Origin: Candidatus Omnitrophota bacterium
GTDB taxonomy: Bacteria; Omnitrophota; Gorgyraeia; Zapsychrales; JANLHA01
Direction of reading: 5' to 3'
Length of the DNA: 30,940 nt
Assembly (NCBI GenBank): GCA_023247815.1
Contig: JAHFFS010000001.1
Location: forward strand, 1-30,940
Shown: positions 2-30,940 of the stretch, piece after piece
How the letters are laid out: each line of letters opens with the position of its first letter
Numbering within the stretch: position 1 is the stretch's first letter
Program-made: the position numbers and the translations under genes
Notes under the pieces: model-generated
Seen by the model: the letters and a program-made list of their open reading frames with translations, nothing else
Database searches by the model: none
Told to the model about the DNA's origin: nothing

Positions 2-3000
2 GACAATCAATTTTCATTAATGTCTGTTGTAAACCCTCAAGGTCAAGCGGTTGCTATAACTGGAACTCCCTATCAGGTCATGGAAGAAAATATTGATACC
101 AACCCTTATCTTGTACAGTCTAGGATGAATCTCTATAACGCTCTCAAGGATGATTTTTCGATCACATCGATTGAAGATATTGTTTTTAATCGCGCGGGCT
201 TTTTGGCGCTGCCCAATGAAAACGGCCAGGGGTTAAGGCAATTTCTCAGTTTGGAATTTGAGTACGGAGGGTTTTCTTTTGAATACCGCGTTGATTTGGC
301 CACGAGAGTGGTCAGAGTATCACCAAAAACACTGGAGATGTTGAACATTTTCAAGAAATCCAAGGCGGCGGTGGCAGGATATTTTACCGGGATGGGCCAG
401 ACCCGAGATGTTAAAGACATGAAGGTGCTTGTGCTCAATCAGATGCTGTGGCGTGACGGTTCGTTGGGCGGGTATCTCAGCTCAACGGAGGTTTCACACG
501 AGCGTACGCCGGGGTATTCAATCCTCATCGCGGTTGGCGATAAAACATTTCAGGTCCATAGTGATCAAGAGGGGTTGACCGTTCTGATTGACCCCAAATT
601 ATTACTTCAGCAAGAGCTCATCAAAAAGGCGATCGAAAATTTGGCGTCACGACTTTCCGTCGCTAAGAATGACATCAATTTTCTGCAATCATTTGAACAA
701 AATTTCACCAGCGGCACATTGGGAGGGTACAATCCCGCGGGTAGCCAGGAAAAACAAAAGGGATATTCATTCATTTTGAAATTAGGCGAAGTGCAGTTTG
801 AATATCACGCGGATTTGACCAATGTTTTTTTGGATCCGATCCAAATTCAGAGCATCTCAGCCATCAATCGAACGAGAAATAGTTTGGTAAGTGTTCTGGG
901 GTTGGAACTTTCCTCCATCAATCTGTTAGACGTTGAAAGGCTGGATGACGGATTCCATGTGACTGTTACTTCATCAGTACAAGATCAACGGTTTTTCTAT
1001 ACGTATCTCCAGCGTGACAACTTGACGGAAATACCCGACGAGGTTGTCACCAAGGCCAGTGCTTATCTAGGACGTGCCCGTTTGGATCTTGCCAATTTAT
1101 TGGGTGTTCCTCAGGCGAATATCACGATTGCTGGTCTTGAAGAGCGCGATGATCAACCATTGCGGATCGTCTTAAATTATAAGAACGTTCTTTTTGAATA
1201 TACGGTTGTCGATGGGACCCCTCAGCTCTTAACCGATGTCCGCGCCTCGGCACCGTTTGTGGAACGCGCTCGGGCAGCGTTGGCCGTATTTTTACAGATT
1301 GACATCAAAGATATCCAGGTCGGCTATGTTCAAAAAATAACATGGGATGACGCGAGCCTCGGTGGGTATCGGACGAATCAAGGGACATCGGCGGTGAACG
1401 GTTATACCATCACTCTTATCTACGGGGGTGAAAATTTTGAATATCATACCAGTCAGACCGAAGTCGTTCTGGATCCTCTGCGACGGGAGGCCCAACCGCT
1501 CATGGGTGTTGTCAAAAATTATTTGGCTTTAGCGTTGTCGGGGAAAGCAAAGGATATCATCGTCTCATCTATCCATCGCGCGGTATGGGATCAGTCAATG
1601 ATGGAAGGGTTTGCCGACATTCCACTGACGTTCAATGCCTGGCCGGCCACGGATGTTCAAATCAATTTGCGGTTGCAGGGCAAAAATTTTGAATTCCGCA
1701 CTTTTGGACAAAAACTCTACGTCGCTCATCTACCACAACTAGGGCCGGTTTATCAATATCATATTGAATACGATCATAACGGCCGACTGAAGCAGATCAC
1801 TAACGTGGATGGAGGAATTTTGGTCTTTAACGCGGATCAGCGGATCGATCGTCTGGAGTATCAAAACGGTCGCCAAGAAATTTATCAGTACGCGAAGAAT
1901 CGATTTGATAGTCTGGAGATGAAGGCCTATCGTACCGGAGAACTCATTAGTAAGTCGATCAAAATCAAACCCCCGGATGAAAAAATATTTCATCTGAAGA
2001 TCTTTCCCCTGAACAGCCAGGTTTCCGCAACGCAACGGGATGCGCAACTTTCTTCCGATGCCGATGAGGCAGCGTTGGATGCTCAGGAGAAAATTCAGGC
2101 GGCCAAACAGCAATTGCTTCAGACTTTGCATGAAAAACTTCAGCAATATCAACAGCTTTTTTCGTCCTTGTCGATACTAGCGCAATCTCACGGTGTCTCT
2201 GATGAAGAGCAGATCCGATTGACGCAGTTGCATTCTTTATTGGAGGATAGTAGGTACGCCGCGTCTTTAAACGAATTGATCAACGACTATCTGGGTTTCA
2301 TCAATTCGGAGGTTATCAATTCCTCGGCCGTCGCGCATTCATTCAATATCAATGATGCTGATGAATCGGCCGGGGATAATTTTTATACCTATGATGCTGC
2401 CGTCGAGGTCATTGCCGCGGTCAACATGTCCTTGAGAGAAAGTCAATTGGGCCATCAAACAAACGCGAATATTTGGCGTCAGCGAGCGAACGCGCTTGCC
2501 CAACGTTTACTATCGACGGAAAAGGACGCGAATGGAGTGAAAAAGGGATACGCTGTTCCCGATAACTATGTGGATAACGGTGTCGCCAAGGCCGGGTTAC
2601 AGGTCCCTTTTAGCATTGAGATTGAAGATAACACTCCGTCGGACTTGTATTTCCGTACCGGGGCGCAGTTTTGGGATGCCTGGGCAGTGCTTTGGCTGCT
2701 CAAACAATTTCCTAATATCGAGAATGCCGCTGTTCTGAAAAGCAATGTCACCAGCCTCCTGGAAACTTTGATCCATGAATATTACATCACTAACCAACCC
2801 CAAGGTCTTCAGCAGCACACCTTCACCGGCGGGATGGGGTTCTATGGGATCCCTGGTGAGCGTCCTATCGATTATTCTGTTTTTAGCGCGGACGCTAAAA
2901 TTCCCTGGTCGAGCACCGAGCATAATACCGACGCTGGTTTTGTCTTGATGCTCGCGGGAGAGGTTTTGGGAAACAGCAGATACACCGACATAGCTCGAGA

Positions 3001-30940: not shown

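Follow-up and report, generated by a model that had tools for sequence, protein, structure and literature searches.

A whole Omnitrophota contig reads as the interior of one giant gene with surface-type domains

Giant proteins of up to 85,804 amino acids (aa) have been described from the phylum Omnitrophota (West-Roberts et al. 2023, bioRxiv 10.1101/2023.11.21.568195), and a more recent catalogue holds 5,761 proteins of at least 10 thousand amino acids (kAA), the longest of them 147,155 aa (Nielsen and Lui 2026, bioRxiv 10.64898/2026.06.07.730766). According to the catalogue preprint, 94% of the Omnitrophota proteins of at least 10 kAA carry transmembrane (TM) helices or a signal peptide (SP), the SP+TM class makes up 39% of 916 catalogued proteins of this size, C39 is a recurrent architecture cluster, and 80% of clusters are singletons (Nielsen and Lui 2026). 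The earlier preprint reports a divergent SecA-DEAD domain in most full-length giants, an Archaeovorin type that combines glycosyltransferases, methyltransferases, glycosyl hydrolases, peptidases, NUDIX domains, and HEAT repeats, and a Dockerin type with many dockerin and TSP3 repeats (West-Roberts et al. 2023). The stretch analysed here (the window) is 30,940 nucleotides of a Candidatus Omnitrophota bacterium, read on the forward strand, and is almost certainly the internal 10,313 codons of one real, single giant gene. A preliminary description, made from the letters of the window, had proposed such a gene and had suggested that its product possibly serves in attachment to, and attack on, a host or prey.

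An open frame shared by two assemblies

Frame +2 runs through the window from position 2 to 30940 on the forward strand, open at both ends in a listing of open reading frames (ORFs) that allows open ends, and its machine translation gives 10,313 codons without an in-frame stop, exactly as first described. The accompanying remark that the frame is invisible to the ORF track reflects how the listing is made, which omits the frame unless open ends are asked for, and says nothing about the biology. Stops number 267-756 in each of the remaining five frames, none of which stays open for more than 436 codons, and in 50 shuffles of the window the longest open stretch never exceeded 207 codons. At the base composition of the window, the probability of meeting no stop in 10,313 codons is ~1e-245. 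Codon-position composition is coding-like, with G making up 36% of first positions and GC contents of 54, 39, and 50% at positions 1, 2, and 3. The stop-free frame is not a repeat artefact: Tandem Repeats Finder reported two tiny arrays in the window and nothing more, and a tiled self-comparison of the protein gave just ten weak internal similarities at 25-40% identity. A tandem-repeat scaffold was rejected on the same grounds, the internal protein repeats being few and weak and the tandem arrays trivial.

The source metagenome-assembled genome (MAG; G000) comprises 1.48 Mb in 227 contigs and is estimated to be 76.9% complete and 0.29% contaminated, with no 16S rRNA gene assembled. Because the window is the complete sequence of its longest contig (C46), the frame is cut at both ends. 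The source bacterium is uncultured, and the sequencing runs that hold the window are groundwater metagenomes. The features that place the window within the gene are the following, where L001 denotes a locus on a second contig of the same MAG, C86, and G001 the related genome introduced below.

1..234, forward strand: dovetail overlap with the 3' end of C86 (L001:6667-6900), 231 of 234 bases identical, with alignments reaching both contig ends
2..30940, forward strand: gene interior, residues 1,815-12,127 of a gene 12,911 or more codons long, as judged by the open frame, colinearity with G001, and the ratio of nonsynonymous to synonymous divergence (dN/dS)
30002..30940, forward strand: variable 3' stretch at the contig end, where identity to G001 drops from ~99% to 91% (0.9105)

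Upstream, C86 contributes 1,814 residues, giving a composite of 12,127; residue numbers (aa) below are those of the window protein, to which 1,814 is added for gene numbering. Immediately upstream of the ATG at which the gene starts (L001:1226) lie an in-frame stop and an AT-rich intergenic stretch. Inspection by eye showed four basic residues, a hydrophobic core of 11 residues, and an Ala-Phe-Ala motif at the N-terminus, which we read as a predicted, signal-peptide-like segment, either a Sec signal peptide or a signal anchor. A six-frame search of 30 related genomes returned a match at 98% identity. It lies on contig C41 of the genome of isolate nzgw299 (Candidatus Omnitrophota bacterium; G001), in an open frame of 12,911 codons; G001 belongs to the same genus, and its assembly is 93% complete. 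The gene is thus an Omnitrophota gene, as had been proposed. The G001 ortholog has the same N-terminus and the same C86/C46 join, and its frame extends 784 residues past the window end before a contig end truncates it too, which gives the gene a minimum length of 12,911 codons. The expectation that the full gene would prove longer than the window was borne out, by 1,814 aa upstream on C86 and by at least 784 aa downstream in the ortholog; of the two termini sought, the start with its signal-peptide-like N-terminus was found on C86, and the stop was not.

Toward the 3' end, no G000 contig overlaps the window tail, the 784-aa G001 extension is absent from G000, and no other G001 contig overlaps the end of C41 of that genome. 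A continuation of the gene was not found in public genome contigs, where the scan returned G001 alone, or in metagenome contigs or a 5.8-billion-protein collection. The final 127 codons of the variable 3' stretch show a synonymous divergence (dS) of 0.38 from G001, and in run X1, from the source sample, two alternative unitigs at window positions 30555-30679 reveal polymorphism. This variability probably explains why the assembly broke at the window end.

All 12,127 residues of the C86+C46 composite align with the G001 frame at 98.47% identity and with zero gaps. Differences between the two genomes number 103, 89, and 300 at codon positions 1, 2, and 3, and by the Nei-Gojobori method dN/dS is 0.21 for the whole length and lies within 0.08-0.36 in each block of 1,000 codons, a pattern that indicates purifying selection along the whole length in the sense frame. 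Five antisense ORFs of 177-432 aa were considered as nested genes and rejected; because none matches a family, and because the 32 substitutions relative to G001 that fall within them track the sense frame (26 alter the antisense residue, only 11 the sense residue), these ORFs are regarded as shadows of the sense frame.

A giant frame in a draft genome could also be a chimeric contig, or a non-coding frame left open by chance or composition, and the assembly gives some cause for that suspicion: the source MAG is fragmented (227 contigs, 77% complete), the window terminates in a polymorphic region, and the C86/C46 overlap carries 3 mismatches. Against this stand the frame probability of ~1e-245, a dN/dS of 0.21 with an excess of third-position changes in every block, real domains that AlphaFold2 (AF2) folds at a pLDDT of 93, and an independent assembly colinear over 36.4 kb with zero indels. 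Because two separate assemblies share the same join and the same 36.4-kb frame, a chimeric contig is ruled out, and Logan contigs from a second sample likewise follow the window colinearly, differing from it by substitutions but by no indel. The gap-free, colinear independent assembly and the uniform dN/dS refute the misassembly that the preliminary description had raised as a concern, and they leave an artefact of any kind with a negligible probability.

Divergence between the two genomes is uneven. The five other regions compared between G000 and G001 share 68-96% DNA identity, and a ~32-kb tract of the giant gene is 99.3% identical, with a dS of ~0.02. The tract extends from ~nt 3,000-4,000 of the coding sequence to window nt ~30,000 (window 2-30001 plus L001:~4200-6900; G001:C41 ~22500-55000), and its flanks are 91-97% identical on both sides, with dS values of 0.16 and 0.38 at its two ends. 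Mis-binning as the source of the high identity was rejected because both tract boundaries lie inside contigs. The simplest reading of these values suggests a recent exchange or sweep of ~32 kb between two species-level lineages.

Domains along the protein

The preliminary description had pictured a mix of sugar-binding, hydrolase, membrane, and enzyme domains, and each kind has a counterpart among the features recognised: two LamG domains and a malectin-type domain, an (alpha/alpha)6 barrel, hydrophobic clusters, and a HemK2-like methyltransferase. In window order these features are as follows.

113..1579, forward strand: diverged repeats of a ~100-150-aa module (aa 38-526), aligning aa 38-186 with 326-482 and aa 206-313 with 419-526 at 26-27% identity
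2594..3511, forward strand: six-hairpin-glycosidase-like (alpha/alpha)6 domain (aa 865-1170), from AF2, Foldseek, PHROG, and the fusions of homologs
5444..11215, forward strand: scattered, diverged RHS/YD repeats with no Rhs core, matching at aa 1815-1850, 2985-2994, and 3705-3738 (RHS_repeat, TIGR01643)
9719..10204, forward strand: first LamG/concanavalin-A-like lectin domain (aa 3240-3401; Laminin_G_3, E 1.4e-16)
11807..11995, forward strand: bacterial Ig/cadherin-like domain (aa 3936-3998; Big_9, Cadherin_5, Cadherin_4)
12149..12931, forward strand: second LamG-like domain (aa ~4050-4310; Laminin_G_3, E 6e-10), an internal repeat with the first
14744..14827, forward strand: malectin-type carbohydrate-binding domain, strongest part of the match (aa 4915-4942; Malectin, 34.3 bits, cut-off 23)
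16082..16237, forward strand: marginal C39-peptidase-like half-domain (aa 5361-5412; 24.0 bits against a cut-off of 22)
16394..16807, forward strand: membrane cluster 1, 138 residues without any charge and rich in Gly, Ala, and Ser (aa 5465-5602), from hydropathy
21185..21985, forward strand: membrane cluster 2, made up of five Gly/Ala-rich runs, each uncharged and 20-44 residues long (aa 7062-7328), from hydropathy
24434..26128, forward strand: two copies of a ~210-aa module with an HExxD-type motif (aa 8145-8354 and 8501-8709), 26-29% identical
27713..29440, forward strand: conserved ~200-aa N-terminal region followed by a HemK2/N6AMT1-like class-I S-adenosylmethionine (SAM) methyltransferase with inserted helical modules (aa 9238-9813), from motifs, profile, and AF2

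Searches with the barrel domain recovered 298 representative clusters at E<=1e-3 from a 1.8-billion-protein library, and an alignment of 70 relatives contains invariant Arg, Glu, Asp, Glu, and Trp columns, the acidic residues being E114, D174, and E232 in segment numbering, which correspond to E973, D1033, and E1091 of the window protein. The AF2 model consists of alternating helices and has a pLDDT of 93.4 and a pTM of 0.91. Foldseek gave it 107 matches in the PDB at E<=1e-3, and those listed are predominantly (alpha/alpha)6 carbohydrate-active enzymes: GH76, GH8, N-acylglucosamine/cellobiose epimerases, and GH94 phosphorylases. The barrel profile also matches cellobiose 2-epimerase weakly. 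The domain also has relatives among phage tail proteins: it matches PHROG 7032, annotated as 'tail fiber protein', at E 5e-22, homologs occur as fusions with a nozzle of T7 type, with a baseplate hub, with a spike of T4 gp5 type, or with a pair of PASTA and glucodextranase-B domains, and the best viral structural match has a TMq of 0.71. The family ranges over phage tail proteins and cellular proteins as long as 5,243 aa. It lacks a Pfam model, and no characterised member was found. We put the family forward as a candidate new glycoside-hydrolase-like family, and fold and context together argue that the barrel may be a domain that cuts envelope glycans.

Around the barrel, the N-terminal part is made up of domains of surface type. 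The region encoded on C86 carries two OmpL47-type modules and Big_9/cadherin-like domains in Pfam and NCBIfam scans. Within the window, the YD matches reach 75.6 bits (summed) for PF05593 and 46.1 bits for TIGR01643, profile scans for the Rhs core (TIGR03696) gave no match, and the motifs DPxG[LWIVM] and PxxxxDPxG occur nowhere in the 12,911 aa. A canonical Rhs toxin was rejected, the core being absent. The match to C39 takes in profile positions 73-127 of 133 only, that is, the C-terminal half, leaving the Cys-bearing N-terminal half unaligned, and none of the solved C39 structures was matched by sequence. Among the 29 genomes of the family that were searched, matches to the middle 2,934 residues of the window protein were confined to its own genus.

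Membrane cluster 1 is flanked by more hydrophobic helices at aa 5286-5306 and 5667-5691, and ~1,360 beta-rich residues separate it from cluster 2. Cysteine occurs 10 times in 12,911 residues and is absent between gene residues 1,634 and 10,176, a run of ~8,540 consecutive residues that takes in window positions 2-25087, a scarcity consistent with an extracytoplasmic protein of an anaerobe.

Beyond the clusters, paralogs of the HExxD module occur in other giant ORFs, on C123, C125, and C216 of G000 and C43 of G001. An identification of this module as a zincin was not adopted, the leads being weak and zincin-like at best (0.84-0.87). Annotation is sparse in this part of the protein. A phmmer search of the PDB with each third of the window protein in turn came back empty. 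The last 2,980 aa have no match in Pfam, NCBIfam, or PHROGs and hold no toxin family, and aa 8669-9219 have no usable match in a protein atlas. In G001, three tandem modules of ~82 aa, 36-40% identical, follow directly after the window end (L010:~3400-4400) and show weak LolA-like and MucB/RseB-like matches.

Motif I of the methyltransferase module reads VLMVGPGTGLD in the window and VLVVGPGSGxD in the consensus, and is followed by GINPLExAN and FDRxxWN(M/L)P. The profile of the module aligns with N6AMT1/HemK2 at E 1.4e-5, and the alignment takes in nearly the entire catalytic domain. The AF2 model has a pLDDT of 70 overall, higher over the first ~320 residues, and resembles KMT9/N6AMT1 with a TMt of 0.69-0.71; of its 700 Foldseek matches at E<=1e-3, the top ones among those listed are nearly all methyltransferases. 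Shared with HemK2/N6AMT1/KMT9 are the class-I Rossmann fold, the GxGxG motif I, and the N-x-P-type motif IV, whereas the window module differs in the exact residues of motif IV (described below), in its conserved N-terminal extension of ~200 aa, in two helical insertions of ~66 aa, and in lying within a giant ORF. We know of no TRMT112-like partner for it. Searched for across the phylum, the module turned up in 18 of 251 genomes, and 13 of the 14 matches that cover most of it sit in open frames of at least 2,126 aa; host frames include ones of 57,099, 35,884, 26,689, 14,048, and 10,642 aa. An open frame of 74,522 codons on G016:C1 (~1.09-1.23 Mb), in a closed 3.4-Mb genome of the same family, also shares the module, and the frame of 57,099 codons lies on G232:C6, in another member of the class.

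A possible role and its alternatives

We give somewhat better than even chances to the reading that the gene encodes a membrane-anchored, sugar-binding and sugar-cutting surface protein of the SP+TM class, used to attach to and attack another cell. In this scheme, the N-terminus would be exported via the Sec pathway, and the first ~7,100 residues, built of surface-protein parts, would be extracytoplasmic. The LamG, malectin, and Ig-like parts would bind glycan on a YD scaffold, and the phage-tail-type barrel would cut glycan of a host or prey envelope. Following this ectodomain come the C39-like half-domain, cluster 1, the beta-rich stretch, cluster 2, and at least 5,500 mostly unannotatable residues that include the methyltransferase. 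Both hydrophobic clusters would fasten the chain to the membrane of the producer, on whose cytoplasmic side the C-terminal region would lie, since its methyltransferase presumably needs SAM. We infer the attachment-and-attack role, for which the kinship of the barrel with phage tail fibers speaks.

Several observations weigh against this reading. About 70% of the residues match no family, and the membrane topology comes from hydropathy, which fixes neither the number of passes nor the side on which the C-terminal region lies. Motif IV of the methyltransferase is NLPSY in the window and N-M/A-P-x in its relatives, compared with NPPY in HemK-type enzymes, so that the Asn and one Pro are kept and the second Pro is not. 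A SecA-DEAD domain has no match in the 12,911 residues available, from which the C-terminal end is missing, the stop codon having been found in neither G000 nor G001. Among the same-sample metatranscriptomes listed, none was shown to hold the window stretch.

Another possibility, to which we assign a low probability, is that the protein works like a polymorphic toxin, as a giant effector that delivers itself: it would dock on prey through its ectodomain, be cut near the C39-like domain, insert its Gly/Ala clusters into the prey membrane, and act inside the prey through its C-terminal region, methyltransferase included. The succession of YD repeats, C39-like domain, uncharged glycine-zipper-like segment, and enzyme modules fits such a protein, as does the presence of a predicted envelope-cutting domain of phage-tail type, and a SAM-dependent enzyme needs a cytoplasm, which could be that of the prey. 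However, neither the Rhs core (TIGR03696) nor a DPxGL autoprotease motif is present, the C39 match is confined to the C-terminal half at 24 bits, the C-terminal 2,980 aa contain no toxin family, no secretion-system gene was seen adjoining the gene in G001, and the translocation of thousands of residues would be without precedent. Slightly less probable again is a version in which the ectodomain and barrel open the prey envelope before the cut beside the C39-like domain, the C-terminal part of >5,000 residues acts in the prey with its HemK2-like methyltransferase, and, in a linked reading, the 32-kb tract marks a recent exchange of such a host-range gene between lineages.

The frame might also be translated once and cut at many junctions into proteins of ordinary size. 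A mosaic of unrelated modules with few internal repeats would suit such a polyprotein, and a peptidase-like domain is present, but no recurrent spacer was found: PLDNG, RSExR, and TN[SA]AVL are absent, and the top 4-, 5-, and gapped k-mers are no commoner than in shuffled sequence. A punctuated polyprotein was rejected for want of a recurrent junction peptide, and the polyprotein reading in general strikes us as improbable, about as much so as the host-range version of the effector. A membrane-anchored surface protein that binds and cuts sugars remains our working interpretation.

Neighboring genes, other giant frames, and known systems

Upstream of the gene in G001, on the same strand, stands a second giant ORF, 5,799 aa or more in length, with an AAA_14/DUF4143 ATPase gene between the two (region C41:44-19487; L016, L008). 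On C86 of G000 (L001:1-1225), the last ~320 bases of the upstream giant gene are present, and the ATPase gene is replaced by a different stretch of ~470 bp that holds a 103-aa ORF with no family match. Because the spacer differs between the genomes and the upstream giant gene is shared, the arrangement is one of two giant genes in tandem with a variable cassette between them. The upstream giant ORF of G001 contains XRE-type helix-turn-helix (HTH) domains at residues ~3695-3875 (L016; HTH_3, HTH_31, HTH_19; E down to 4e-11), which are odd in a presumed surface protein and may represent a small gene read through in frame.

Further giant frames occur in these genomes. In G000, 18 contigs (9.7% of bases) are a single open frame from end to end, among them C139, C188, C16, C37, C52, C62, C68, C117, C123, and C125, and open frames of 1,500 codons or more account for 12.4% of the assembly. 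Other large frames occur on C127 (5,334 aa), on C141 (4,033 aa), and across a C19-C11 join. These observations indicate several more giant genes in the small G000 genome. An 18,668-aa frame, open at both ends, occupies C43 of G001 and has orthologous pieces on C169, C1, C163, and C123 of G000 at 81-92% identity. A dispersed short repeat was also observed, an element of ~80 nt from an otherwise ordinary contig, C88 of G000 (L017, 2573-2667), with >25 copies at 73-90% identity across many G001 contigs.

Three further kinds of known system share parts of this architecture. The enzymatic domains of phage tail fibers, nozzles, and hubs (PHROG 7032, 13714) are represented by the barrel through its PHROG 7032 match, and the hub to which one barrel homolog is fused is of the phiJL001 gp84 type; unlike those domains, which belong to virions, the window barrel lies within a giant protein of a cell. 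With Rhs/YD toxins and teneurin-type YD shells, the protein has in common YD matches over a long beta-rich tract and enzyme-like modules much later, but it lacks the Rhs core and the DPxGL aspartyl autoprotease, and its sparse repeats are interspersed with LamG and Ig domains. Adhesins of type I secretion systems (T1SS; LapA, SiiE, and MpIBP type) are likewise very large, with Ig/cadherin-like domains and a presumed role in adhesion. Whereas those adhesins have long arrays of near-identical repeats and a C-terminal T1SS signal, the window protein is almost non-repetitive and has a predicted N-terminal signal peptide and internal membrane clusters, and Pfam scans found no match to RTX repeat families.

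The closest comparison is with the Omnitrophota giants themselves, so far as the parts of the two preprints used here describe them. Like the published SP+TM giants, the gene belongs to this phylum and forms a single ORF of >10,000 codons with a predicted signal peptide and internal hydrophobic clusters. It likewise encodes a mostly unannotated protein in which lectin-like (PF13385), C39-like, methyltransferase, and glycosidase-like parts are combined, and it is lineage restricted, its middle part being confined to the genus, as the 80% of singleton clusters would lead one to expect. The YD repeats and the phage-tail-type barrel were not met in those published descriptions and set the window protein apart. 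Methyltransferase, glycosidase-like, and C39-like parts are shared with the Archaeovorin type, but Pfam scans of the 12,911 residues gave no matches to glycosyltransferase, NUDIX, or HEAT families, and no scan matched dockerin or TSP3 (PF00404, PF18884). Judged by its domain matches over those 12,911 residues, the protein fits neither the Archaeovorin nor the Dockerin type cleanly.

The class to which this gene belongs has already been published, with thousands of such ORFs catalogued, and the window is one more member. Because giant Omnitrophota genes are a recognised and functionally unexplained class, one more example does not change the picture. The value of this one lies in a 5' end, a predicted signal peptide, and a 12.9-kaa architecture fixed by two independent assemblies, and in a giant gene that differs far less between two species than the remainder of their genomes does, which hints at recent exchange or a sweep. 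It also offers two expressible pieces, the barrel and the methyltransferase module, that could put an 'attach and digest' hypothesis to the test.

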